Source: an uncultured Bacteroidia bacterium (lineage in GTDB: Bacteria; Bacteroidota; Bacteroidia; J057; CALLMJ01). Taken from it: a stretch of 64,000 bases of DNA. Positions 3,189 through 58,695 of this stretch are shown here, one piece after another; position 1 is the first letter of the stretch, and every line of letters starts with the position of its first letter. Position numbers and translations under genes: made by a program. The notes beneath the pieces were generated by a model, which did not search any database, had not been told where the DNA came from, and saw only the letters and a list, made by a program, of their open reading frames with translations. The stretch covers positions 1-64,000 of the forward strand of contig CALLNY010000031.1 in the NCBI GenBank assembly GCA_938005475.1, in the 5' to 3' direction.

Positions 3189-6158
3189 ATGAAAAAAATT
3201 GTAATTTTGTTTTGGTGTTTTTATTATACGCTTAACATTTACGCTACTCATATCGTAGGAGCTGATTTGTATTACACTTGCCTTGGCAATCATTTATATG
3301 AAATTACTTTGAAGATGTACAGAGATTGTTTAAAAGGGGAAGCCCCTTACGATAGACCCATTTATCTATTTATTTTTCAGAATTCAAATCCACAAAACTA
3401 TACCATTTACGAGATGTATCCCGATACGGTGCCTGTGAGTTTATCGTGGCAGGGCTGTCTTCCTAATCCACCAAATTTATGTATCTCCGAAGGAACTTAT
3501 AAATTAAGAGTGTATTTACCACCTCGGATAAAAGGTTACGACATAGCCTGGGCTAGGTGTTGTAGGAATTATGCTATCACAAACTTAACAAAACCATTAG
3601 AACGGGGAGTTACTTTCTTGGCTACCATTCCTGGTGTAGAAGTTCTAAATCAAAACTCTTGCAATTCTATGCCAATTTTTAGAAATAGACCTTCTTCTTT
3701 TATTTGTGTAAATCAAGATTATTATTTTGATCACGGAGCCGTAGACCCTGATGGGGATTCGTTAGTTTATGAAATTTCTAATCCTTTTGATGGCACTAAT
3801 ACTCAGGGAAGAGGAGTATTTAATTCTACTGTATATCCTGGTACCTCTCCGGTTGTAAATGCAAATAATCCATTAGGTTACAAGCCTTACAATAATGTCC
3901 CGTTTGCCCCTGGCTTTTCTTATCTAAACCCTTTCGGTAACAATCAAATTTCTATTGACTCCCAAACAGGTTTACTTCGTATTCGCCCTGGTATGCCAGG
4001 TATTTTTGTGATGGCTTTATCCGTGAAAGAATACCGTAATGGCATTCTACTAAGTGAAAACAAGAGAGATATTCAAATACATGTGCTAAATTGTCTTGCC
4101 CCTGACCCTCCCCCTCTTATTTCGCATGACTTTGGTAATTTGCCTCATAATGGTGATACTTTGTTTGTAAATGCGAATCAGAATTTTTGTTATAATGTAA
4201 TTGTTACCGATACAGGTTCCAATCCTATTTTAGAGGCTTTTCCTGCGAATAACGCTTTTGGAGGAACAGGATTTATTCCCCCTTTTGCTTCGTTGACCGT
4301 GTCAGGAAATAATCCACTTATTGCCAAAGTTTGCTGGAAACCTACTTGTGATTACGCTAATCAAATTATTCCTATTGTGGTTGGAGCAAAAGATAAAAGC
4401 GAATGTTTAAACCATAACCCTATCTTTGATACTATCTTCGTAAAAATTACAGCTCCTTATCTTCCGCCCCCTACGGTCACTTTTGATCTCAACGGTACAA
4501 CCTATTCTAATGATACCATCTTCGCATGGTTAGATGGTAATCTTTGTTTTAAGTTCAGTATTATTAACCCTCCTAATGTGGGAGCTAACAACATTACTTA
4601 CGATTACGAATTTTCTAACTATGGTTCTTCACCTCCTACTGTTTCCGATATCCTCAGGATTGGAGATACTTTAAGTGGTAGAATGTGTTGGACACCCAAT
4701 TGCGATGTTCTCCAAGATACGGTTGTAGTAACGGTTATAGGTAGAAATCAAGATTTATGCCCACCGAACAATCAGTCTCAAAATCAAATTTTTATAGTAG
4801 TTCAACAACCTTTTAACCCGCCCCCAACTCTCATCCATGATTATACCGGTTTAATCTTAGTTGGTGATACTATTCAAACAGTATTAGATTCTACAATATG
4901 TTTTACTTTTGAGTTAAGGGATACTTTACCTGCTTCTCGTTTGGATGTACGAGTGAAAGCTGAGCTCATATCGGGAAATACTTTAAATACTCCTTCTTTG
5001 CAAATTCTTGACAAACAAGATACTTTGATTGTAGGAAGAATCTGCTGGAAACCAGGTTGTGAAGCAGTAGAACAAAAAGTTAGAATTGTTGTTGTGGGAT
5101 TGGATTCTTCATTATGTTTGTTAGATTATGAATTGATGGATACGAGTTACGTTTATGTGAAAGGTCCTGAAAACTTACCCCCTGTAATAAATTACAATTT
5201 GGGTAATCAAAATTTGAGTAATGATACTTTATTTTTGAATGTCAAACAGAATGGTTGTTTTGAGGTAACATTAATCGATGTTCAACCTGATGTTGTCGGA
5301 ACCCTACAAGTTCAAACAGAGAATTCATTAGGTATAAATCTTCAAGTGATAAGCAATGAAGGTGGTATATTGAAAGCCATTGGTTGTTTTAAGCCTGGTT
5401 GTGAAGTTTTGAATCAAACGGTGTTGATAAAACTGATAGGTAGTAAAAAGTTTGATTGCGCCCCAACGCTCTATGATGTAGATAGTTTTTATATTCAAAT
5501 TTTAGAGCCTGAAAATAACCCTCCTATGATACGGCATATTTTTCAGACTCCTGAAGTTGCTCCAAATACGATTAGCGTAGAACCTGGACAAAAAATTTGC
5601 TATACCATTGAACTTATAGACCCTGATTCTTTGGCTTTATTAAATGTGCAAGGTTTAACTGCAATGTTTGAACCGAACTATGGCTACGGTGGTAACGCTG
5701 TTTTTATAGATACTATCATCACACCGAATCGACTAACCGTTAACATTTGTATGACACCTAATTGTTATTCACGTAAAGTTACAGAGACCTTAGTTGTGTG
5801 CGGTTATGATACTACCACTTGCTCCGAGAAATATGTTGTTTGTGATACGATTACCTTACAAATCAGGGATTGCTTGTTGAGTTTTCCGAATGTGTTCACT
5901 CCTAATGGAGATGGGGTGAATGATTATTTTCAACCATTTGCATTGGAAGGTATTCTTAACTACAAAATGAAAATTTATGATCGTTGGGGCGAACTTCAGT
6001 ATGAAACTGACAACTCAGGAAAATGGAACGGTAATAGACCTAATGGCAAACCTTGCGTGGAAGGGGTTTACTTTTTTGTGTTAGATTTTACTTTGCATCA
6101 CGGAACCGGTGCTCCTATTACTGGTAGATTTTTTAACCATTTTACATTATTACGTTAA
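3189..6158 (+). CDS. Large secreted surface protein (989 aa) with N-terminal signal peptide, at least five internal cysteine-motif modules and a T9SS type-B C-terminal sorting domain
   Basis: The N-terminus MKKIVILFWCFYYTLNIYA is signal-like. A [IV]C[WFM][KT]P[TNG]C[DEY] motif recurs roughly every 110-120 aa. The C-terminus carries FPNVFTPNGDGVNDYFQP...KIYDRWG. Confidence 0.7.
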   Translation: MKKIVILFWCFYYTLNIYATHIVGADLYYTCLGNHLYEITLKMYRDCLKGEAPYDRPIYLFIFQNSNPQNYTIYEMYPDTVPVSLSWQGCLPNPPNLCISEGTYKLRVYLPPRIKGYDIAWARCCRNYAITNLTKPLERGVTFLATIPGVEVLNQNSCNSMPIFRNRPSSFICVNQDYYFDHGAVDPDGDSLVYEISNPFDGTNTQGRGVFNSTVYPGTSPVVNANNPLGYKPYNNVPFAPGFSYLNPFGNNQISIDSQTGLLRIRPGMPGIFVMALSVKEYRNGILLSENKRDIQIHVLNCLAPDPPPLISHDFGNLPHNGDTLFVNANQNFCYNVIVTDTGSNPILEAFPANNAFGGTGFIPPFASLTVSGNNPLIAKVCWKPTCDYANQIIPIVVGAKDKSECLNHNPIFDTIFVKITAPYLPPPTVTFDLNGTTYSNDTIFAWLDGNLCFKFSIINPPNVGANNITYDYEFSNYGSSPPTVSDILRIGDTLSGRMCWTPNCDVLQDTVVVTVIGRNQDLCPPNNQSQNQIFIVVQQPFNPPPTLIHDYTGLILVGDTIQTVLDSTICFTFELRDTLPASRLDVRVKAELISGNTLNTPSLQILDKQDTLIVGRICWKPGCEAVEQKVRIVVVGLDSSLCLLDYELMDTSYVYVKGPENLPPVINYNLGNQNLSNDTLFLNVKQNGCFEVTLIDVQPDVVGTLQVQTENSLGINLQVISNEGGILKAIGCFKPGCEVLNQTVLIKLIGSKKFDCAPTLYDVDSFYIQILEPENNPPMIRHIFQTPEVAPNTISVEPGQKICYTIELIDPDSLALLNVQGLTAMFEPNYGYGGNAVFIDTIITPNRLTVNICMTPNCYSRKVTETLVVCGYDTTTCSEKYVVCDTITLQIRDCLLSFPNVFTPNGDGVNDYFQPFALEGILNYKMKIYDRWGELQYETDNSGKWNGNRPNGKPCVEGVYFFVLDFTLHHGTGAPITGRFFNHFTLLR

Positions 6159-26260: not shown

Positions 26261-26719
26261 TTGCGTTTTTTGTTAAAAGTAATGGAACAATATCAACAAA
26301 TATTCATTCAGGTTATTGAGGAGATGATTCCTTTTAATAAATTTTTAGGATTTCAATTAGAGGAGATTAGAGCGGGATTTGCTAAGATACGAGTTTCATT
26401 TAGGGAGGAATTTATTGGGGACCCGCGTAATCGTAGGTTACATGGGGGATTATCAGCGACCTTAATTGATACGGTAGGAGGAGCCGCCGCCTTAACTACT
26501 CTTACTTCTTTTGATGACCAAATCGCTACCATTGATATGCGTGTAGACTACCTAAAACCAGCTAAAGCAGAAGACCTTATCGCAGAAGGACAAATATTAA
26601 GAAGCGGAAATCGTATTGTTGTATGTGAAATGAAAGTTTATCAACCTTCAAGTAAAGAGATTATTGCCGCAGGAAAAGCGGTTTACAATGTTATTAGGAA
26701 AAATCCCAAATCAGAATAA
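26261..26719 (+). CDS. PaaI/YbgC-type hotdog-fold thioesterase
   Basis: Hotdog motifs LHGG and LIDTVGG are present. Confidence 0.6.
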   Translation: MRFLLKVMEQYQQIFIQVIEEMIPFNKFLGFQLEEIRAGFAKIRVSFREEFIGDPRNRRLHGGLSATLIDTVGGAAALTTLTSFDDQIATIDMRVDYLKPAKAEDLIAEGQILRSGNRIVVCEMKVYQPSSKEIIAAGKAVYNVIRKNPKSE

Positions 26720-28026: not shown

Positions 28027-28139
28027 ACAGCGTTTCGTTTAGGAATGCAATGTAAATTTAATCAATATTTTTACAAAATGTCAAGTTATAATCTATCAAA
28101 AAATCAAAAAACATTGAAAATCAATAGAAAAAAATTAGT

Positions 28140-28190
28140 CGTTGGCTTGATTTGATAAAATATCTTTTTCCCAACGACCTTCTTTTGGCT
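28140..28190 (-). terminator. Putative terminator of the csm operon
   Basis: The inverted repeat GTCGTTGG(G)...CCAACGAC is followed by a T-rich tract on the minus strand just 3' of the csm6 stop. Confidence 0.3.
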
Positions 28191-28199
28191 ACTAATACT

Positions 28200-29726
28200 C
28201 TAGTATTTTGTTACAAATCTACTTTCTCTCGCTTTGGTAATCCCCGTATCAATATACTCTATAATCTTGTGATTGAGCTTCTCATATATATCTTCCTCAA
28301 TTTTTAATATTTTTCTAAACTCACGAAAAAGTAAATTAATCTCATCTATATTGTCTGGGTAAATTTTCTTTTTAGCTTTTTTTAGTTTTTTGATGATTGT
28401 TGTATGGAAAAAAGAATCCAATCCATGCGCAGCGATAGATTTATTCCGTAAAATTTTCAAATCTTTTACGTAATTTTTAAAATTCATTTTTTGTTTGAAC
28501 TCAGGGGAATTCTCTAATTCTTTATCATGTTCAATAAAATAATTCAGCAAATTTTCTGTAAGATAAGTAGTAGGATTATCCTCTAAATACCTTATTTCTT
28601 TTTTTTCTAAATAAAGTTTTAAATCTTCTTTATCAATTCTTTGATTTTCCTTGTCATTTAAATATTTTTCAAATTCTTGCTTCCATTTGTTTTGTTCAGG
28701 ATAATTTATTCCAGTAATGTTGATAACTTCTTGTAATTGTAACATTTCTATAAATCGGAAGATTCTCAAAAGGAAATCATCATAATCACCTTGTTGAAAC
28801 TTTATGAAACAACTGTAATACAATTGTCTCATCGTAAATTTTTCTTTGTCCAAATCTTTAACATCATTAATGAGTAGTTCAATAAAGCTATCCTCGGATT
28901 TTGGGAAATGTTTTTGGTTATTTTCTAATGTTTGAATGGCTTTTTCAGGTTGAAAAATCAATCGGTTGTGGGCGTATTCTGCGAGCGTTCGGATTTTAAT
29001 ATCAATCGAGTGGAGTTCCAGTATAGCGGCATAGTTATATTTTTCAACAAACCTACGAGCAAATTTATATTCTAAAACCGTATAAAAACGTGTTTTTATA
29101 TCTATTTTAAAACTTTGTTTTCTTTTTTCATCTACCATTACCTCCACCAAAGACTTATCTTGGGAATATAGATGTAGTACTACAAAACGAACGGCGTTAT
29201 TGATAGCGTCTATACCACCAACTAAATGTAAGTATAAATTTTCACTTTCAAAAATTTTTTCTTTAAAAGGAGAAGTGGATAGTTTTTCTAACATGAAATC
29301 ATACATATCATGCAGACTTATTACGTTTTCATGGACAGGTAAATGATAGACCTTAACATTTGGATACTTTTTTATGAGAAATTTTTCTAATACCATTCCA
29401 AAATAAACGGTATCTTGATTGTGTTTTTCGTATTGGTCTGTTGCTACCAAAACCACATTATCCAATGTAATTCCTTCCTGCTCAACCATTTTAAGAGTAG
29501 GTGTAACAATTGGGAAGTCAATGTAATCTAGAAAAAAACTAAAATAACGATAAAGAAATTCTCCCAATACTCTTGCAGGAATATTATAAATAGATTTATT
29601 ACTATTAGTTTCCTTTTTTAGTTGAGTATATTCCTCTAGGATTTGCGGAGGAATATTGGTATGAGTAAAATCTTCTGTTTTTAATTGTATGTCTCGGGTT
29701 CCAAGTGTTATAATTAATGTATTCAT
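28200..29726 (-). CDS. csm6: CARF-HEPN ancillary ribonuclease Csm6 (type III-A)
   Basis: The N-terminal CARF Rossmann start is MNTLIITLGTRD. The C-terminal HEPN R-x4-6-H motif is ILRNKSIAAHG. It is the last gene of the cas6-cas10-csm2-5 operon. Confidence 0.7.
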   Translation of the reverse strand: MNTLIITLGTRDIQLKTEDFTHTNIPPQILEEYTQLKKETNSNKSIYNIPARVLGEFLYRYFSFFLDYIDFPIVTPTLKMVEQEGITLDNVVLVATDQYEKHNQDTVYFGMVLEKFLIKKYPNVKVYHLPVHENVISLHDMYDFMLEKLSTSPFKEKIFESENLYLHLVGGIDAINNAVRFVVLHLYSQDKSLVEVMVDEKRKQSFKIDIKTRFYTVLEYKFARRFVEKYNYAAILELHSIDIKIRTLAEYAHNRLIFQPEKAIQTLENNQKHFPKSEDSFIELLINDVKDLDKEKFTMRQLYYSCFIKFQQGDYDDFLLRIFRFIEMLQLQEVINITGINYPEQNKWKQEFEKYLNDKENQRIDKEDLKLYLEKKEIRYLEDNPTTYLTENLLNYFIEHDKELENSPEFKQKMNFKNYVKDLKILRNKSIAAHGLDSFFHTTIIKKLKKAKKKIYPDNIDEINLLFREFRKILKIEEDIYEKLNHKIIEYIDTGITKARESRFVTKY

Positions 29727-29738
29727 GATAAAAATTAG

Positions 29739-30860
29739 TTAAAATAATGTAAATTTAACAAAACCAAGTGGTGTTCCATCTGATAAGTATCTACGAGTTT
29801 TGGGATAAATATCTTTGTAATGGGCTCTTGGGTCAATTTTTTTTATTTTATCGGATTTATTTTCAATGAAAGAAAAATCTAACCAACCACCGGTCATACC
29901 GATATAGCCTAAACCAAAACCTACACGAATATAAAATTCATTGGGTTTCTTATTATTCATTTTATGAATTAAATCATTAAGTTTATCTAAATATTTTTCA
30001 ATGGTACTATCACGGTTTTTATCTAATTGTTCATAATCTTTTTTACATATTTTGATGGTTTGGTCGTGCATGATTTGTAAAAAGGTTTCAGTATTTTCTA
30101 TTTTGGAGAATACATTAACATTATCTGGATAATTTCCTTTTAATAATAATTCGTTATTTTTTAGATATTTATAGGCTGTTATTTCATTGGGAGTTTGTAA
30201 ATCTACTAAATAGGATTGTTTAGGCGTGATACATTCAATAGGTTGCATAACGTTAGGTCTTCCTTTGATTTGGTATTTCCATTCACTACCATGTTTATTT
30301 GCAATTTGGACGGAATAAATTTGGGTATTTTCAAAATGGGCGTCGTAAATTCTTAAAAACTTCATGAGATTGTTTTGAGTTTTATTAAAGAGATAATCTA
30401 AAAGCGGAGCATCCTTAGGTTTATCGGATTCAAAGCATTCATCAAGTTTTTTTAGAACATGGGTATCTTTTCCAGCGATAGATTTACGAACAATAAGCGT
30501 TCTTAAAGCGCCTTTCAAGCTAGAGCCAGGGATATAAGGTTTTCCCATACCGTTACGAATATTAGATTTAATTTCTTTTTGATAGAGTTTACCGACAACA
30601 GGAATTTCACGTGATGCTATCTCTTTAGGGGATATACTTCCTGAGATACCTTTGATAAGATTTACGATATTAGTGGAGTCTTCTATGGCGTCTACCCATC
30701 GGTCTATGTTATTTTCTCCAATGTAATGATATACTTTTTGGGGGTCTATGATATAAATTTTTTGGGCTTTCTCGTCATAGAGATAGTCTAGATTTTCATA
30801 TAATTTTTGCCCTGAACCGATATGGACGGGCGTAATGGTTTCAATTTGAATTTTCGTCAT
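29739..30860 (-). CDS. csm5: Csm5 (Cas7-family RAMP, type III-A)
   Basis: The RAMP N-terminus is TITPVHIGSG. The G-rich loop is GKPYIPGSSLKGALRT. Operon position supports the call. Confidence 0.75.
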   Translation of the reverse strand: MTKIQIETITPVHIGSGQKLYENLDYLYDEKAQKIYIIDPQKVYHYIGENNIDRWVDAIEDSTNIVNLIKGISGSISPKEIASREIPVVGKLYQKEIKSNIRNGMGKPYIPGSSLKGALRTLIVRKSIAGKDTHVLKKLDECFESDKPKDAPLLDYLFNKTQNNLMKFLRIYDAHFENTQIYSVQIANKHGSEWKYQIKGRPNVMQPIECITPKQSYLVDLQTPNEITAYKYLKNNELLLKGNYPDNVNVFSKIENTETFLQIMHDQTIKICKKDYEQLDKNRDSTIEKYLDKLNDLIHKMNNKKPNEFYIRVGFGLGYIGMTGGWLDFSFIENKSDKIKKIDPRAHYKDIYPKTRRYLSDGTPLGFVKFTLF

Positions 30861-31896
30861 AATTTTTTAAATAAATTTTAAGGAATAACGATTTACCACA
30901 ACGAGGAATAGGATGTCCTACATTTTCATCAGGTCTTAAATCTACAATTTTTCCTGATAGTTCATTTGGTGAAAAAAACAAAGAACCTTCTTTGAACATA
31001 TAAACGCTTTTTTTTCTTTTACCTGCCCAATATTTATGAGTAGTGCTACTAATATAACCGCCGCATTTGATAAAATCGTAATTAGCATTTTGCAAAATTC
31101 CTTGTTGTACTTCTTCTATGGTTGGGCAGTACAAAGATAAATTGATTGCAAAGTTTGTATTTTCGGGATACTCAAAAGATACAGCGGAAGGGATATATTC
31201 AAAATCAAAAGTTCCCCAGCCGTAAGTTCTATCTCCCCCAAGACCATTATCCCCAAGCAACCTAAAAACGGATTCTATCTCTTTGTTGTAAACATTCGGA
31301 TTTAACAAACAATATAAACCTGCTTCTGGCATAAATTGTAGAGATTGCGTGTAGTAAGGAACGGACATTTGAACCATTTCATGGTTAACTTCACTTACTG
31401 AAATGCTTGCTCTTTGGTATTCAGCAAATTTAAATAGGGGTTTTATAGGTTCTGAATTCTGAGACGAAAGAGTTAGGAATAATTCGTCTTTACTAAATGC
31501 GTTCAGGGGAATTTTTATAGAAGTTTGGGGATTTAAAAGAACGTATTGCATAGCGTATTGGTCCAAAAATTGGAGGTTTTTAAATTTTTTGTGATAGGAT
31601 ATATCAGGAGTACTTTCTGCAATCTCGAAAGGCAAGCGGATAAAAGGTTTAGGGAAAAAGAATTGGTCTTTATAGAAGGGGAAAGCACTACTGATTTGGG
31701 CGAGTTTATTTTGCCATTCGATATTTTGTTCGGCTTGCCAAGGACCGAATAGTTCTAACGCTAAATAATAAAGGGCGGCTTTCAAAGTATCAGAGTGAAC
31801 TACATGAAAAAGTTGGCTTTGGTCTCCTTTAGCTATACTTAATTGTAGAGGCTGCCGAAAATGTAGTTTTACTACATCAAACGTTTGCTTTTTCAT
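30841..31896 (-). CDS. csm4: Csm4 (Cas5-family RAMP, type III-A)
   Basis: The N-terminus VKLHFRQPLQLS...HSDTLKAAL follows the Csm4 pattern (L.F.sP.H.G...SDTLFSA). It overlaps csm5 by 20 nt. Confidence 0.7.
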   Translation of the reverse strand: MKKQTFDVVKLHFRQPLQLSIAKGDQSQLFHVVHSDTLKAALYYLALELFGPWQAEQNIEWQNKLAQISSAFPFYKDQFFFPKPFIRLPFEIAESTPDISYHKKFKNLQFLDQYAMQYVLLNPQTSIKIPLNAFSKDELFLTLSSQNSEPIKPLFKFAEYQRASISVSEVNHEMVQMSVPYYTQSLQFMPEAGLYCLLNPNVYNKEIESVFRLLGDNGLGGDRTYGWGTFDFEYIPSAVSFEYPENTNFAINLSLYCPTIEEVQQGILQNANYDFIKCGGYISSTTHKYWAGKRKKSVYMFKEGSLFFSPNELSGKIVDLRPDENVGHPIPRCGKSLFLKIYLKNYDENSN

Positions 31897-32614
31897 AGTT
31901 AGTAAATAAATTGCGTAAGGTTTCGTTTTGGGGTATGGGATAGTCTTTTTCTTGTTCTTGGAATTTATAGAAACCTGCTGTTCTTTCTTTTATTTCTTGA
32001 ATGAAAAACTTTACTTTTCCGTAACCTCTTGAACCACAGCCACCTAAATAGTCATTTTCGATTAACAATAGCCCCGCAAACGTATCATTTACTAATTGTT
32101 TTTCGTCATCAATATCAAAGATATTGAGCACCATATTCAAGCGGAAACGAGCTTCTGCTGGAACACGCTCAAATGTTCTCGGAGTTGCGGCAGAAGTAAT
32201 TCTATCTATTACTACTTCTGTTTTACTTTCCGTGTAGGGCAAATCCGTATTTACGAAATCTTTATCGTCATTTAACAAATCCGCATCATACACTATAATA
32301 CGTGAAGATCTTTGTTTTTCATCTCCTGACGAGCATCCAAATAATTTAGAAGAGTTCGTATTCGGATTTTCGGATGGTCCGTTATTTACTTTTCCCATAG
32401 ATTTATTACCAATTGTTCCGTCACGAATCTCAATTAGACTACGCATTTTTCCTTTAATGGAACTTCCAGGAATATAAGGCTTGTTTGTCAAGGGGTTACG
32501 AATCACAGGACTATCTACTCCCCCAATGGATAACACCGAGGAACTTCCCCCCACTCTTATGCCACTCAATGCTTTAATTTCACCTTTGATAATAATTTTT
32601 TTTACTAACTTCAT
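31877..32614 (-). CDS. csm3: Csm3 (Cas7 backbone subunit, target-RNA nuclease, type III-A)
   Basis: The N-terminus MKLVKKIIIKGEIKALSGIRVGG is classic Csm3. The catalytic Asp lies in GGVDSPV. The G-loop is KPYIPGSSIKGKMRSL. It overlaps csm4 by 20 nt. Confidence 0.85.
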   Translation of the reverse strand: MKLVKKIIIKGEIKALSGIRVGGSSSVLSIGGVDSPVIRNPLTNKPYIPGSSIKGKMRSLIEIRDGTIGNKSMGKVNNGPSENPNTNSSKLFGCSSGDEKQRSSRIIVYDADLLNDDKDFVNTDLPYTESKTEVVIDRITSAATPRTFERVPAEARFRLNMVLNIFDIDDEKQLVNDTFAGLLLIENDYLGGCGSRGYGKVKFFIQEIKERTAGFYKFQEQEKDYPIPQNETLRNLFTNYEKANV

Positions 32615-32629
32615 ATCTTATGCTATTTT

Positions 32630-33052
32630 TTAATTTCCACCATGTGCTTTGTGATACGCTAATATTGCTTCTAATAAGTCTACGTAATTCTTAAACTTTT
32701 TTTCTAAGTTTTCTTCATTCGAAATTACGGCTTGATGCGCTTTACTCATTAAATCTTTGAAAAGGTCTAGCCCTGGCTTATTTGCACGTTTAGCTGTGTA
32801 AGCTAATTTGGGCTTTAGCATGTAGAAGGCATTTTTTTCGCTTTGAATACCTTTCATTTGAATGCGCTTAACCTCACCAAAGAAATTTCGTATTTGCGAG
32901 GTAGTTAAATCTCCATTTTTGATTTCTTTTGCGAAATTTTCACAATACTCAATAGTTTGGGAATCAAACCCATCGGTTATCCAACTGGATTTAAAATCCT
33001 CCAATATTTTTCTATTGTTGGTTTCTTTGTTTTTTGTTGGTTTTGAGTTCAT
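32630..33052 (-). CDS. csm2: Csm2 (Cas11 small subunit, type III-A)
   Basis: The 140-aa alpha-helical protein carries LTTSQIRNFFGEV and KPKLAYTAKR blocks typical of Csm2. Confidence 0.7.
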   Translation of the reverse strand: MNSKPTKNKETNNRKILEDFKSSWITDGFDSQTIEYCENFAKEIKNGDLTTSQIRNFFGEVKRIQMKGIQSEKNAFYMLKPKLAYTAKRANKPGLDLFKDLMSKAHQAVISNEENLEKKFKNYVDLLEAILAYHKAHGGN

Positions 33053-33067
33053 ATTATTATTGAATTT

Positions 33068-35338
33068 TTAATTTTCGGAACGAATTTCTAATTCTGCCCA
33101 GCGAGCGGCTACGCCTACCAAATCTATGTAATCATAGTCGCTGTATGATTTACTACTATTTAATAAGCAATCTTTTTGTAATTGCTCTAAAAATAATTTT
33201 AGGTCTTGGTTATGACGGTTTGAGTCAATCATTCTTTTGATGTGATAGGCTAGCAACCATTTCCATTGTGGATTTTGTTTTTTTTCTGTGAGTTCTTTTT
33301 TTAGTTCGTAGAAATTCATTAGTTTGGTTATCAAGGATTTATTTATATTTTGTACGGTAATAAAATTAACGAACTTATTTTTTAATTCTTTGACTTTAGG
33401 GAATTCTTTTTCCCAGTTCATAGGGAAATCTAAGAAGGTGATAGCGTTTTTTTCTTGATCTTTACAGCGGTGTTTTTTAGATTTTTTTTCTGCTTCATGG
33501 GATAAATTGGCGGCTTGAAGGATGGGATATTTATTATTGACGAGTACTATGCCGCCTGATAAAGTAAAATAGGGATTATGGGCAACCCATTGCTTAAATT
33601 CTGTATAGATTTGTTCTGCGAACAGGACTACTTGTTTCCAATCGCCAATTACAAAAAGGTCATCTCCTCCTGCATACAGGATATTGATATGATTTTTATA
33701 TTCATTTTGTTCACGTAGGAGATAAAGGTAACCTCGGAAAAAGTAATCGAGGCTTCTACTGATATTGGATAAGCGTACGATAGTTTTTTGGGATCCACTT
33801 AAACCGTTCATAAAAATTTGCCCTAGGTTGTCCACGTCCATACGTAGTATTCCTAAACGTTTCAAACTTGTACTTGCAAGTAGGTTTTCAAAACTAGTTA
33901 CTTTTTGGCTTTTGCTGTAATTCCATTTTAATCTGGATTGGAAATTTGTGGGCACTTTTTCGTGAAAATGAATATAGCGTAACGTATCCATGGATAGGGG
34001 TTGTCGGGGTATATTATCATATACTTTACAGCCCCAACCAGAAAAGGGGCTTTTTATCGTGACGTCTCGGGGTAACGTTTTATGCATCAAATGAATTTCT
34101 TTCATGTCCACTAAACATTCCCCTAACTTAATTAAGCGTTTGGTTTGCTCCGATAATATTAAATTTTCACTTTCTCCGTATTCTTCTACTTCTTCGCCTG
34201 TGATGCGGTCTATTTCGCTTTCTATATTTCCCCAAGGCTCAAAAAAGCTAACATAATTTTTTTCTATGATGAGATGGTATTTTCTACGTTTTTTTGCATT
34301 TAAAATTTCTGATAAATTACGCCATTTTTCGTGGATTTTGTATTGTTTTATATCTAATGGTGATAATGTAGTATATCCTAACGAAAGATATAACTGCATT
34401 TTGTGGATACTTAATAGATCTTGTTGTATTTTTTTTTCTATTTCATGAAACTCTGAACGTATCTTTTCCGTATTCGGTGCTAATAAATAAAAGCCTCCTC
34501 CCGATACATAAACAATGTGGGATTGCGTTAAATCTAACGTACGGATGAGTTCTTGTACTGCCCATTCCGTGATTAACTGTAAATAATAGGAACGTCCTTT
34601 TAGATTTTTTCCTGCTGATTTATTGATTACATCATATATAAATGCTTGTATGCCCGATAAATCTCCTCCAATCAACAAAAATACGGGCAGGTCTTCTTTT
34701 AAATTTTCTATTAGGTCTATATTTCCTAACTCACTGACCACGTAATCATAAATACTCAAACTTATACCATTGAAGAATTGTAAGTAATCATAATAAGAAA
34801 TATCGGTAGGTGCAGTAGTGTAAGGTATAAAAGAAGTATATTTTTGTAGTAAACTTAGCAGATTATCATTAAAATATAGCAGGTTCGGGCTTGATACATT
34901 TTTACATTCTTCCCTAAATTCTGACCATATTATCTGATAATCGGTTTGTATGGTATCTATTTTTCTTTCTTTTAGTTTTTTGGGGAATATTCGTTGTTGA
35001 AAACTAAATATTTCTGATGGGTAATAGTATTTTTCGGTAGTTTTTTTATCCCATTCCTTTACACTTTGAGCGACTGGTATCAAATAATTATCTTTTGTTT
35101 GCTCTGATATAGTTTCTGTTACTACCAATCTTTTTGACCATTCTTGTAACGTTTTGTACCATTTAGAATTATAGATATTTGATACTTGATATTGTATTTC
35201 GTTCCACTTTGGTTCGAGGCAACTTTCCATTAATGTTTTTACCTCTTCTGTGTTCTGGTTTGCCCTTTTACACAAGCCTTCAATATGGCTAATTTGATTA
35301 CGTAAATATAAATAATTTTTTTCGTTTTCTGGTATCAT
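33068..35338 (-). CDS. cas10: Cas10/Csm1 large subunit with intact cyclase Palm domains but no recognisable HD nuclease domain
   Basis: The first palm carries LLIGGDLSGIQAFIYD. The second palm carries RMDVDNLGQ and the GGDD motif (ILYAGGDDLFVIG). The N-terminal ~210 aa contain a single His and no HD dyad. Confidence 0.8.
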   Translation of the reverse strand: MIPENEKNYLYLRNQISHIEGLCKRANQNTEEVKTLMESCLEPKWNEIQYQVSNIYNSKWYKTLQEWSKRLVVTETISEQTKDNYLIPVAQSVKEWDKKTTEKYYYPSEIFSFQQRIFPKKLKERKIDTIQTDYQIIWSEFREECKNVSSPNLLYFNDNLLSLLQKYTSFIPYTTAPTDISYYDYLQFFNGISLSIYDYVVSELGNIDLIENLKEDLPVFLLIGGDLSGIQAFIYDVINKSAGKNLKGRSYYLQLITEWAVQELIRTLDLTQSHIVYVSGGGFYLLAPNTEKIRSEFHEIEKKIQQDLLSIHKMQLYLSLGYTTLSPLDIKQYKIHEKWRNLSEILNAKKRRKYHLIIEKNYVSFFEPWGNIESEIDRITGEEVEEYGESENLILSEQTKRLIKLGECLVDMKEIHLMHKTLPRDVTIKSPFSGWGCKVYDNIPRQPLSMDTLRYIHFHEKVPTNFQSRLKWNYSKSQKVTSFENLLASTSLKRLGILRMDVDNLGQIFMNGLSGSQKTIVRLSNISRSLDYFFRGYLYLLREQNEYKNHINILYAGGDDLFVIGDWKQVVLFAEQIYTEFKQWVAHNPYFTLSGGIVLVNNKYPILQAANLSHEAEKKSKKHRCKDQEKNAITFLDFPMNWEKEFPKVKELKNKFVNFITVQNINKSLITKLMNFYELKKELTEKKQNPQWKWLLAYHIKRMIDSNRHNQDLKLFLEQLQKDCLLNSSKSYSDYDYIDLVGVAARWAELEIRSEN

Positions 35339-35339
35339 T

Positions 35340-36035
35340 TTAATGAACTTTTGTAATCGGCTCTTTTATTACTGCTTTCTGAACGGTCCCGTATCCTATA
35401 CTTGCTAATTTACCAATATTCACATCTATTGGTAAGGTCATATTCACTGAAAAGTCAATATCTAAATTATACAATTTGATACCTTTATAGTTTATCCATC
35501 GTTCTTTTCTTATATCTTCTATTACTGCTTTTATAGGGGATTCTAAGGTATATCGAATACCTTCCGCAAAATTGATGATATGGGCTACTAGGATTCTTTC
35601 TAACATTTCTACCCGAGCTTTTAACGAATAGGTCTTAAAATACATTTCATAATTTTTGGAGTTTAGGGGCAACCAATTCTTTAAACGATATCTTACTTGC
35701 TCGTCCCATACTTGGATAACTATGGGTTTTAAATACATATTTTCTATATTTAACTCTCTTCTTTTGCCATGGAAGTCTATGTATAAAGGGGGATTTCCTA
35801 TATGAGATAGTAAACAATCACTAGCTTCTTCTAAACATACTAAATGGGCTTTTTCGTCTTTTGTATTAAACTGTGCCAAAGGATAACGAAACCGTTTACT
35901 TCCGTCTTCTAAATGATGATGAAAATACTCTGCTCCTTCTTGTATCTCTTTTGAAAATGCATAACGGAATGCTCGTATTTCTTCGGAGTTAATCCCTAAA
36001 TCAAAAGTTAGACCTATATATTTCAACTTTTTCAT
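35340..36035 (-). CDS. cas6: Cas6 crRNA-processing endoribonuclease
   Basis: It is the first gene of the operon. A His lies in the N-terminal region and a C-terminal glycine-rich loop GKLASIGYGTV is present. Confidence 0.65.
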   Translation of the reverse strand: MKKLKYIGLTFDLGINSEEIRAFRYAFSKEIQEGAEYFHHHLEDGSKRFRYPLAQFNTKDEKAHLVCLEEASDCLLSHIGNPPLYIDFHGKRRELNIENMYLKPIVIQVWDEQVRYRLKNWLPLNSKNYEMYFKTYSLKARVEMLERILVAHIINFAEGIRYTLESPIKAVIEDIRKERWINYKGIKLYNLDIDFSVNMTLPIDVNIGKLASIGYGTVQKAVIKEPITKVH

Positions 36036-36131: not shown

Positions 36132-36575
36132 AATTTGTAAGCAATTAAAGTTCTTTGAAATCAAGGGATATTATCTAAAAATATAGGTGCTGTGAAGCAC
36201 TAATCTTAAATTTTAAATTCTAATTACTATTAAGTGTATATACTATCTATTAAGCGGTGTTTTCTGCAACTTATTATCTGTTTCATGAAAAGTGTATACA
36301 CTATTGAAATTATAAACAAGAAATTGTTTATGACTTCGTTACCACAATAAGCGTAGCAACCCCAAACCTTTTAATAAGTTAAGTTGCTACGCTTTATTCT
36401 TTTATAGGAGATTATTTCCAATTTGTTCTTTGATAGTTAAACTAATTTTTATACTTTTGCTAAATATTAGAATTCAAAAATTGAGCTTTTACATAAAAAA
36501 ACAATGTAAAAAAGTGTTAAAAATAAAAAAAAAAGGAGAAATAACCATTTGATATTGAGATAGTTATGAATTATC

Positions 36576-36677
36576 GGTGTATATACCATCTAATTAATAG
36601 GAGTTCACAACTTAAAAATATGGCATACGATGAGATCATTGGGTGTATCCACCATCTGATCAGTAGGTGTCCACAAC
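36576..36677. CRISPR. Vestigial 2-repeat/1-spacer CRISPR-like remnant (36-nt degenerate repeats, 30-nt spacer)
   Basis: R1 is GGTGTATATACCATCTAATTAATAGGAGTTCACAAC at 36576-36611. R2 is GGTGTATCCACCATCTGATCAGTAGGTGTCCACAAC at 36642-36677, about 80% identical. The spacer is TTAAAAATATGGCATACGATGAGATCATTG. Related GTGTATA(T/C)AC(C/T)AT motifs also occur at ~36233 and ~36291. Confidence 0.35.
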
Positions 36678-36708: not shown

Positions 36709-37158
36709 TTAAATATCTAATATAGCCATTGTTAGGCGACTAATACAGGTAAGTTTGCCTTTTTCATTAGTGATTTGGATATCCCAGACGTGTGTAGTTT
36801 TTCCTAGATGGATAGGGGAGCATTTGCCAAATACATATCCATGAGTTTCAGAGCGAATATGATTGGCGTTGATTTCTAAACCTACGCATTTTTTGGTAAG
36901 TCCAAGATGAGTAATATAAAGTCCTGAGGCAGTTGAGCCAATAGATTCCGCTAAAACTACGGATGCTCCCCCATGTAGTAAACCGAATGGTTGTTTCGTT
37001 TTAGCGGTCACAGGCATTCTTGCCACTAAATAGTTAGGTCCAATTTCTATAAATTCAATCTCTAAAAATTCTATCATGCAACCTTTTGAAAAATCGTTTA
37101 ATTGTTTCGGAGTAACTTCTGGAAAAATTTTTTCTGTCATATTTTTTGATTTAAACAA
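36709..37158 (-). CDS. PaaI-family hotdog thioesterase
   Basis: LHGGASVVLAESIGS plus a conserved hotdog core. Confidence 0.65.
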   Translation of the reverse strand: MFKSKNMTEKIFPEVTPKQLNDFSKGCMIEFLEIEFIEIGPNYLVARMPVTAKTKQPFGLLHGGASVVLAESIGSTASGLYITHLGLTKKCVGLEINANHIRSETHGYVFGKCSPIHLGKTTHVWDIQITNEKGKLTCISRLTMAILDI

Positions 37159-58419: not shown

Positions 58420-58435
58420 TTAGGGCATTTTGAGG

Positions 58436-58510
58436 TGGGAGCTAACGGATTCGAACCGCTGACCCTCTGCTTGTAAGGCAGATGCTCTAAACCAACTGAG
58501 CTAAGCTCCC
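58436..58510 (-). tRNA. tRNA-Val(TAC)
   Basis: Acceptor GGGAGCT, anticodon stem TCTGC/GCAGA, loop CTTACAA. Confidence 0.8.
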
Positions 58511-58527
58511 TTCTATTATTTTTGAGG

Positions 58528-58602
58528 TGGGAGCTAACGGATTCGAACCGCTGACCCTCTGCTTGTAAGGCAGATGCTCTAAACCAACTGAGCTAAGCTC
58601 CC
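58528..58602 (-). tRNA. tRNA-Val(TAC), copy 2 (identical)
   Basis: Exact duplicate of the preceding gene, 17 nt downstream. Confidence 0.8.
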
Positions 58603-58610
58603 TTAATCTG

Positions 58611-58695
58611 TACCCAAGACCGGAGTCGAACCGGTAAGGTATTGCTACCATCGGTTTTTGAGACCGACGCGTCTACCAATTCCGCCACTTGGGCT
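58611..58695 (-). tRNA. tRNA-Leu(CAA)
   Basis: Long variable arm, D-arm GCGGAATTGGTAGACGC, anticodon loop CTCAAAA. Confidence 0.8.

Follow-up and report, generated by a model that had tools for sequence, protein, structure and literature searches.

In type III-A (Csm) CRISPR-Cas systems, the RNA-activated single-stranded DNase (ssDNase) arm located in the HD domain of Cas10 is typical but not strictly defining. Some type III-B and III-D systems rely on cyclic oligoadenylate (cOA) signalling and possess a Cas10 without an active HD domain. In addition, type III loci often lack cas1-cas2 of their own, as the adaptation module is optional. Here we describe a type III-A locus from a 64,000-nt stretch of DNA of an uncultured Bacteroidia bacterium (contig CALLNY010000031.1, positions 1 to 64,000; hereafter the window), and compare it with the III-A complexes of Streptococcus thermophilus, Staphylococcus epidermidis, Lactococcus lactis and Thermococcus onnurineus (PDB 6xn3, 6nud, 6ifk, 7uzw and 6mur). 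Like these model systems, the locus encodes Cas10/Csm1, Csm2 to Csm5, Cas6 and a Csm6-type protein, and both the catalytic Asp of Csm3 and the GGDD motif of Cas10 are conserved. It differs from them in a Cas10 that appears to lack a functional HD domain, so that no ssDNase arm would be expected, and also in its Cas6b-type Cas6, in the lack of adjacent cas1-cas2 and in a single-spacer array that is probably divergent from the cas genes. We regard it as quite probable that the locus is a complete and selectively maintained III-A module for interference, processing and signalling, equipped with its own contracted array.

An earlier note on this DNA, made from the letters alone, had proposed a seven-gene minus-strand operon encoding Cas6, Cas10 and Csm2 to Csm6 in III-A order. 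The open reading frame (ORF) listing of the window contains seven co-oriented minus-strand ORFs with exactly the limits given there, and three profile libraries (Pfam, TIGR models and PADLOC) agree in assigning all seven of them to Cas families. The first gene, cas6 (35340..36035, minus strand, 231 aa), encodes a predicted Cas6b-type endoribonuclease for the processing of CRISPR RNA (crRNA), with matches to Cas6b_N (1.6e-14) and Cas6b_C (4.3e-28) of Pfam and to the PADLOC Cas6 profile (1e-33, positions 3-215 of 216); its C-terminal glycine-rich loop was seen in the sequence as IGKLASIGYG. It is followed by cas10/csm1 (33068..35338, minus strand, 756 aa), whose cyclase palm domains are intact while the N-terminal HD nuclease domain is degenerate and truncated. 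This Cas10 falls into the Csm1 (III-A) clade, as the TIGR02578 equivalog model scored 482 bits against a cutoff of 170, whereas the III-B model TIGR02577 reached 38 bits, under its cutoff of 79. Next come csm2 (32630..33052, minus strand, 140 aa; Cas11 small subunit of III-A; PF03750 at 3e-24 and 86 bits, TIGR01870 at 2.7e-18 and 67 bits) and csm3 (31877..32614, minus strand, 245 aa; Cas7 backbone subunit and predicted target-RNA endonuclease with the catalytic residue Asp34), for which TIGR02582 gave 206 bits, above cutoff, and the matches to Csm3 proteins of PDB went down to 1e-42. The gene csm4 (30841..31896, minus strand, 351 aa) codes for the Cas5-like subunit that would bind the crRNA 5' tag together with Cas10 (TIGR01903, 187 bits over positions 3-304 of 304; Pfam Csm4_C, 2.8e-19), and csm5 (29739..30860, minus strand, 373 aa) for the Cas7-like capping subunit (TIGR01899, 91 bits over positions 1-356 of 364; PADLOC Csm5, 2e-26); both TIGR scores likewise exceed their cutoffs. 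The last gene (28200..29726, minus strand, 508 aa) encodes a putative CARF-HEPN effector RNase of the csm6/csx1 family. Since the profiles are covered end to end, with essentially complete coverage for all seven proteins, no gene of the operon is truncated.

The spacing of the genes, recomputed from the ORF coordinates, was also as previously described, with gaps of 1-15 nt and two 20-nt overlaps: the gaps are 1 nt for cas6/cas10, 15 nt for cas10/csm2, 15 nt for csm2/csm3 and 12 nt for csm5/csm6, and the overlaps concern csm3/csm4 and csm4/csm5. Directly 3' of the last gene, a hairpin followed by a T-run (28126..28179, minus strand; stem GGTCGTTGG...CCAACGAC with a long loop, then TAATTTTTTT; read by eye) is the probable intrinsic terminator of the operon. 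It was not listed by a consensus terminator scan with a loop limit of 3-8 nt, for which its loop is too long. In S. thermophilus the genes likewise follow the order cas6-cas10-csm2-5-csm6. By its gene content, the locus is best annotated as an ordinary and intact type III-A (Csm) effector operon.

Exact look-up of the Cas10 protein gave two further assemblies, L001 and L002, and a Cas10 scan of the genome collection gave a sole relative, L003, which is a metagenome-assembled genome of an uncultured Bacteroidia bacterium. Among the three near-identical assemblies (window, L001 and L002), merely 8-12 nt differ over the 7836-nt operon and no gene is disrupted; L002 has a Cas10 identical to that of the window and 8 nt differences in the operon. 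All seven genes are under purifying selection, with Nei-Gojobori ratios of nonsynonymous to synonymous substitution rates (dN/dS) of 0.07-0.24 against the L003 orthologues (codon alignments; 70-90% amino-acid identity). The former suggestion that the locus may be in decay is not supported, given these values and the full length of the seven ORFs with respect to the profiles.

The motifs of Csm3, Cas10 and the last protein of the operon were retained as well. D34 of Csm3, located in IGGVDSPVI, aligned with D36 in IGGIDNPVI of T. onnurineus Csm3 in the PDB alignment, and thus the catalytic Asp previously read from GGVDSPV is present. Similarly, the GGDD cyclase motif of Cas10 was found at residues 557-560, where it is invariant among 12 aligned homologues (alignment A2), and the Palm2 domain matches PF22335 at 6.5e-35. 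The 508-aa protein matched the PADLOC profiles Csx1 (4e-41) and CARF+HEPN (4e-31), while the Pfam Csm6 HEPN family (PF09670) scored 28.5 bits, slightly over its cutoff of 27; its homologues carry PF09659. Across eight aligned homologues R427, N428 and H434, which form the HEPN motif R-N-x5-H (R-x6-H in the earlier note), are invariant, and so are the N-terminal TxGxRD and GGI..N, which can be read as putative CARF signatures. A profile built from the eight homologues recovered a family of 1555 cluster representatives. The protein thus belongs to a large family of its own, unlike the Csm6/Csx1 proteins of PDB by phmmer, which found no match to it among the PDB sequences.

The AlphaFold2 model of the 508-aa protein (mean predicted local distance difference test score, pLDDT, of 86) was compared with known structures by Foldseek. 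The best matches were S. thermophilus Csm6' (8pe3) and E. italicus Csm6 (6tug), both bound to cyclic hexaadenylate (cA6), followed by T. thermophilus Csm6 (5fsh, with cyclic tetraadenylate, cA4), Csx1-Crn2 and S. islandicus Csx1 (6qzt). E-values went down to 3e-8 with a probability of 1.0, at 10-16% identity in the structural alignments. Matches span the whole length of the cA6- or cA4-bound Csm6 structures, and CARF-only ring nucleases were matched too. Like the known Csm6/Csx1 RNases, the protein thus appears to combine an N-terminal CARF with a C-terminal HEPN domain, and its 508 aa exceed the best-matched chains (379-462 residues), the Csx1-Crn2 fusion being longer still. On the strength of model and motifs, its annotation as a predicted CARF-HEPN RNase of the Csm6/Csx1 family is justified.

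Although the motifs listed in the earlier note stand, the degeneration of the Cas10 HD domain had been overlooked, which alters the mechanism to be expected. Cas10/Csm1 proteins of PDB were matched at up to 1e-52, but only over residues ~132-707, leaving the first ~130 residues unaligned. The window Cas10 and its sole close relative (P0002, 78% identity) are 756-757 aa long and have no match to PF01966; the next homologues (33-39% identity) reach 830-890 aa in most cases, and the majority have such a match. According to alignment A2, ~90 residues are deleted from the HD region of the window Cas10 as compared with its relatives. The motif LLHDIGK of the relatives is replaced by LRNQISH, the HKHVLWTAQF and HHxP blocks are deleted, QxADHxxSGxDRT is changed to QVSNIYNSKWYKT (ADH to SNI, DRT to YKT) and DVSLYDH reads DISYYDY; a single His is found among the first 200 residues. 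With its conserved motifs all substituted or deleted, the HD nuclease domain of this Cas10 is predicted to be dead. The likely output of the system would then be RNA cleavage by Csm3 plus a cOA-activated Csm6, without RNA-activated ssDNase.

HD loss is common to the window Cas10 and the 78%-identical relative that retains a long array, and hence it should be old and compatible with function. Over the first 150 codons, degenerate as they are, dN/dS against L003 is 0.13, and this purifying selection suggests that the region keeps a structural role. As the N-terminal HDxxK is kept in 101 of the 120 best homologue clusters and about 15 full-length clusters (e.g. P0119 and P0024) are without it, HD loss is recurrent in this Cas10 clade and not unique to the window. 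The predicted logic of RNA sensing, cOA synthesis and activation of an ancillary effector, with no Cas10 DNase, resembles that of the HD-less III-B and III-D systems; unlike those, the window possesses a bona fide III-A Csm backbone, as indicated by the TIGR02578 equivalog. Two observations on other HD-less members of the clade may be added. Locus L007 (10001-12448) carries a solo Cas10 homologue (P0024), also HD-degenerate and with no other csm genes nearby, which adjoins a type I restriction-modification system, a Fic protein and an EVE-domain protein and looks decayed or co-opted. L005 (4155-16545), like L006, is another III-A locus with an HD-less Cas10; its accessory genes encode MJ1674- and MJ1673-like proteins, an HTH protein and a PIF1-type helicase, with cas1 downstream.

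Upstream of cas6, a 673-nt stretch separates the operon from the next gene, a 4HBT thioesterase (36709-37158). This stretch contains a mini CRISPR array of two repeats and one spacer at 36576..36677, probably on the plus strand. Repeat 1 (36576-36611) is a perfect 36-nt unit reading GGTGTATATACCATCTAATTAATAGGAGTTCACAAC on the plus strand and GTTGTGAACTCCTATTAATTAGATGGTATATACACC on the cas strand (36611-36576); after a 30-nt spacer (36612-36641) follows the degenerate terminal repeat 2 (36642-36677; GTTGTGGACACCTACTGATCAGATGGTGGATACACC on the cas strand, 36677-36642), which differs from repeat 1 at 7 of the 36 positions. Degeneracy is the usual state of a terminal CRISPR repeat. The two-repeat sequence reported before does exist, but its description as decayed is not supported, as one repeat is perfect and only the distal one is degenerate.

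The sibling assemblies carry other versions of this array. L001 has the same two-repeat structure as the window. In L002, at least seven perfect copies of window repeat 1 with 30-31-nt spacers were found at the same site, and the contig ends inside the array. The 78%-identical relative L003 has 10 full copies of a variant repeat, plus one truncated at the contig end, at the same position. Because near-identical L002 and relative L003 carry long arrays at the same site, the window array has been contracted and is not a random relic. The contraction most likely occurred by recombination between repeats, which would have left the oldest spacer between the leader-proximal repeat and the degenerate terminal one. 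The window contig and L001, assembled independently from different samples, both show the two-repeat form with the same junctions between leader, repeat 1, spacer, repeat 2 and thioesterase gene. From array to cas6 the window and L002 agree at every position, and L001 departs from them at two. A second array with the window repeat was not found elsewhere in the 64 kb, nor did the repeat pattern match any of the JGI metagenome contigs; the lineage is rare in public data. The earlier view of a stand-alone locus is thus not supported: the locus has its own leader and mini-array, whose repeat 1 matches the unit of the L002 array and resembles that of L003. Both an array (36576-36677, longer in L002 and L003) and a Cas6 of the Cas6b type (35340-36035) are at hand for crRNA supply.

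Adaptation genes were not detected in the window. In the PADLOC scan, none of the remaining 72 ORFs with 70 aa or more matched Cas1, Cas2, reverse transcriptase or any other core Cas protein, as the earlier note had stated for cas1, cas2 and reverse transcriptase; the matches obtained were weak (E-values of 7e-5 to 5e-4, to mad2, mad8 and an accessory 2OG model) and none of them is core Cas. In the Pfam annotation, adaptation genes were also missing from the 10 kb to the left and right of Cas10 in L001 and from the 10 kb that follow the window on its right. An adjacent, co-transcribed cas1-cas2 is excluded, the flanks of the operon being occupied by housekeeping genes. Hence adaptation must either depend on a Cas1-Cas2 from another part of the genome or not take place.

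The direction of the array was judged from the leader, the repeats and an outgroup locus. An AT-rich leader (36406..36575, plus strand) precedes repeat 1; it is identical in the window and L002, and differs in L001 by one base in the length of a T-run only. On its plus strand a Bacteroidetes-type promoter motif, TTTG-N19-TACTTTTG, lies at 36429-36459, 117 nt before the first repeat. This motif occurs 9 times in the window versus 3.9 expected, and four of the eight other copies directly precede a co-oriented gene or tRNA cluster. It was more informative than a sigma-70 promoter and terminator scan of the leader region, which remained at chance level. Transcription of the array on the plus strand, divergent from the cas genes, is likely, because the promoter motif lies upstream on that strand, because the degenerate repeat is on the thioesterase side, away from the leader, and because the repeat then ends in ...GTTCACAAC (...CACAAC), known type III repeats ending in ...AAC or ...GAC. 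It is also favoured by the likeness to the repeat of L004, the nearest outgroup locus (CTCCGAGTACACCATCCATCACAATAAGGATTAAGAC, with its direction fixed by a truncated last repeat), as L004 and window repeats share the ordered blocks ACCATC, AATA.GGA and TT.A.AC in the plus orientation only. The converse, an array on the minus strand and co-directional with the cas genes, with the repeat GTTGTGAAC...ACACC and the 5' tag UAUACACC, seems rather unlikely to us. Such a repeat would start with GTTG, like many repeats, the relic repeats near cas6 (described below) could be degenerate trailer copies, and arrays are co-oriented with the cas genes in several model III-A loci. But the degenerate repeat would then stand at the leader end, with no room for a leader in the 31 nt that separate it from the thioesterase stop codon, while the repeat next to cas6 is perfect in L002 and L003 as well as in the window; moreover, the promoter motif faces the opposite way and the resemblance to L004 is lost. 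Folding of the repeat RNA gave no significant structure in either orientation and hence no direction.

The reading of a complete module with its own array has to be weighed against several further points that speak against it. The orientation rests on four modest indicators, and the global alignment to the L004 repeat was not significant by shuffling and is a weak hint only. As this is a metagenome assembly, the array length in the window might not hold for the whole population. Given its single spacer and the lack of adaptation genes in view, the strain may in effect have no immunity. Lastly, no protospacer was found for any of 16 spacers (one of the window and 15 of L002 and L003) in GenBank phages or in the window itself, nor for four spacer cores in IMG/VR. 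That the two-repeat array might be an assembly artefact, the real genome having a longer, L002-like array, is in our view improbable. The metagenomic origin of the contig leaves room for it, as do the L002 and L003 contigs, which both break inside the array and so indicate that assembly is difficult there and that spacer content varies in the population; however, an artefact is hard to reconcile with the identical junctions in two assemblies from different samples, and the degenerate repeat and its spacer form a unique sequence joined to the flanking gene. A possible though less favoured view is that the effector mainly uses crRNAs borrowed from arrays elsewhere in the genome, which was the first option of the earlier note; the source could be, for example, a type I-B locus with a Cas6b-compatible repeat and cas1-cas2, the local array being incidental. 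Where type III loci have no adaptation genes, it is common for their repeats and acquisition to be shared with type I-B (PMC8482600). The Cas6 of this locus belongs to the Cas6b type, which is typical of I-B; the lack of cas1, cas2 and reverse transcriptase in the window and the single local spacer point the same way. On the other hand, the locus has its own leader and array, and its siblings keep 7-10 or more repeats at exactly this site, which indicates that the cognate local array is used; neither the window nor the JGI contigs provided a second array with this repeat. Borrowing is compatible with a module that has its own array and does not exclude it. Least probable among these readings is that the locus is functionally dead or decaying. 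The collapsed single-spacer array with its degenerate distal repeat, the relic repeats nearby, the missing adaptation genes and the degenerate HD domain could be taken as signs of decay, which does occur in the clade, as shown by the orphan Cas10 of L007. Nevertheless, the seven ORFs are intact and full length, dN/dS is low in each gene, hardly any nucleotide differs among the three assemblies, the catalytic Asp, GGDD and R-N-x5-H are retained, and the HD loss is shared with a relative that keeps a long array.

Taking the locus as a complete module with its own contracted array, we propose the following mechanism. The leader promoter would probably transcribe the two-repeat, one-spacer array on the plus strand, divergent from the cas genes. 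Cas6 (Cas6b type) would cut the repeat to leave an 8-nt 5' tag, predicted to be UUCACAAC, then UUAAAAAUAUGGCAUACGAUGAGAUCAUUG, and the crRNA would be loaded into a Cas10-Csm2-Csm3-Csm4-Csm5 complex. Upon binding of a complementary transcript, Csm3 may cleave the RNA through Asp34, while the palm domains of Cas10 (GGDD) would produce a cOA species that activates the product of the last gene, the putative CARF-HEPN Csm6/Csx1 RNase. Since none of the metal-binding motifs of the HD domain is left in Cas10, the ssDNase arm is expected to be absent, and immunity would depend on RNA cleavage and cOA signalling. The window strain presumably lost all spacers but the oldest, trailer-proximal one, and sibling strains keep longer arrays. 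New spacers, if any, would have to be acquired via a Cas1-Cas2 from another genomic locus.

Between the array leader and the cas6 promoter lies a further repeat-like block (36234..36405, plus strand), which is probably the relic of an older array. It comprises two degenerate repeats (36234-36262 and 36292-36314, ~21 nt apart) and a 12-bp hairpin at 36349-36394 (plus strand) with a T-rich tail to 36405, read from the sequence. In local alignment to the repeat the relic scored 18, compared with a maximum of 16 in 300 shuffles; its second copy scored 11. The window, L001 and L002 share the block unchanged, apart from one hairpin-loop base in L001, and it is absent from L003. We considered whether the relic pair, which has a plus-strand terminator of its own and lies immediately upstream of the cas6 promoter, might be a CreR/CreA-like degenerated mini-CRISPR. 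Its crRNA-like product would then direct the Csm complex against the transcript of the operon itself, serving autoregulation or addiction; if true, this would be the first such case among type III systems. The pseudo-spacer of 21 nt that separates the two relic repeats does match the strand antisense to cas10 (34431-34451) at 17 of 21 positions. However, a match of equal quality was found elsewhere in the window, so 17/21 is at chance level, and the relic is missing from L003; this idea was therefore judged highly improbable.

The core architecture of the locus is identical to that of the Bacteroidota-type III-A loci (homologues P0003-P0120; L004, L005 and L006), which have cas6b-cas10-csm2-csm3-csm4-csm5 followed by variable accessory genes and whose Cas10 proteins share 33-39% identity with that of the window. 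It differs from this group in its isolation, having a sole near relative at 78% Cas10 identity and the next one at 38%. In L004 the array is downstream of and co-oriented with the operon, unlike in the window, and L005 and L006 differ by other accessory genes and a cas1. Thus, the locus is a new and rather isolated member of the Bacteroidota cas6b-cas10-csm2-5 group, and it adds one III-A lineage from an uncultured Bacteroidia whose next Cas10 homologue is only 38% identical. Current understanding is not challenged by it; rather, it illustrates three known trends, namely the lack of own cas1-cas2, the recurrent loss of the HD domain that would leave cOA signalling as the main output, and fast array contraction between near-identical strains. 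There is also a lesson for annotation: a two-repeat "remnant" can be a live minimal array, and sibling assemblies settle the question.

The operon is surrounded by housekeeping genes, i.e. hpf, an XerC/D-like recombinase gene and thioesterase genes, with tuf, rplKAJL and rpoBC further to the right. Two 4HBT-family thioesterase genes, 26261-26719 (plus strand) and 36709-37158 (minus strand), flank the block of hpf, the xerC/D-like gene and the cas genes. The cas operon of L003 has another downstream neighbour, a gene for an fn3-domain protein, which indicates that the context of the cas locus differs between the two lineages.

Several other features of the window deserve mention. Two large surface-protein genes are located on the plus strand at its left end: in the one at 3-2522 a 246-nt unit is repeated 3.1 times in tandem (516-1267), and the one at 3189-6158 encodes a CHU_C sorting domain. 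The sibling contigs, when extended leftward, break in the repetitive surface-protein gene. An 819-aa ORF lies at 10135-12594 (minus strand), for which the sibling contig L009 has a Pfam match to MVP_shoulder and a faint one to Vault_3. Both domains belong to the major vault protein, which is unusual in a bacterium. Three tandem tRNA-Lys(UUU) genes with an 88-nt period, followed by tRNA-Leu, occupy 14737-15074, and two identical tandem tRNA-Val(UAC) genes adjoin a tRNA-Leu at 58434-58694.

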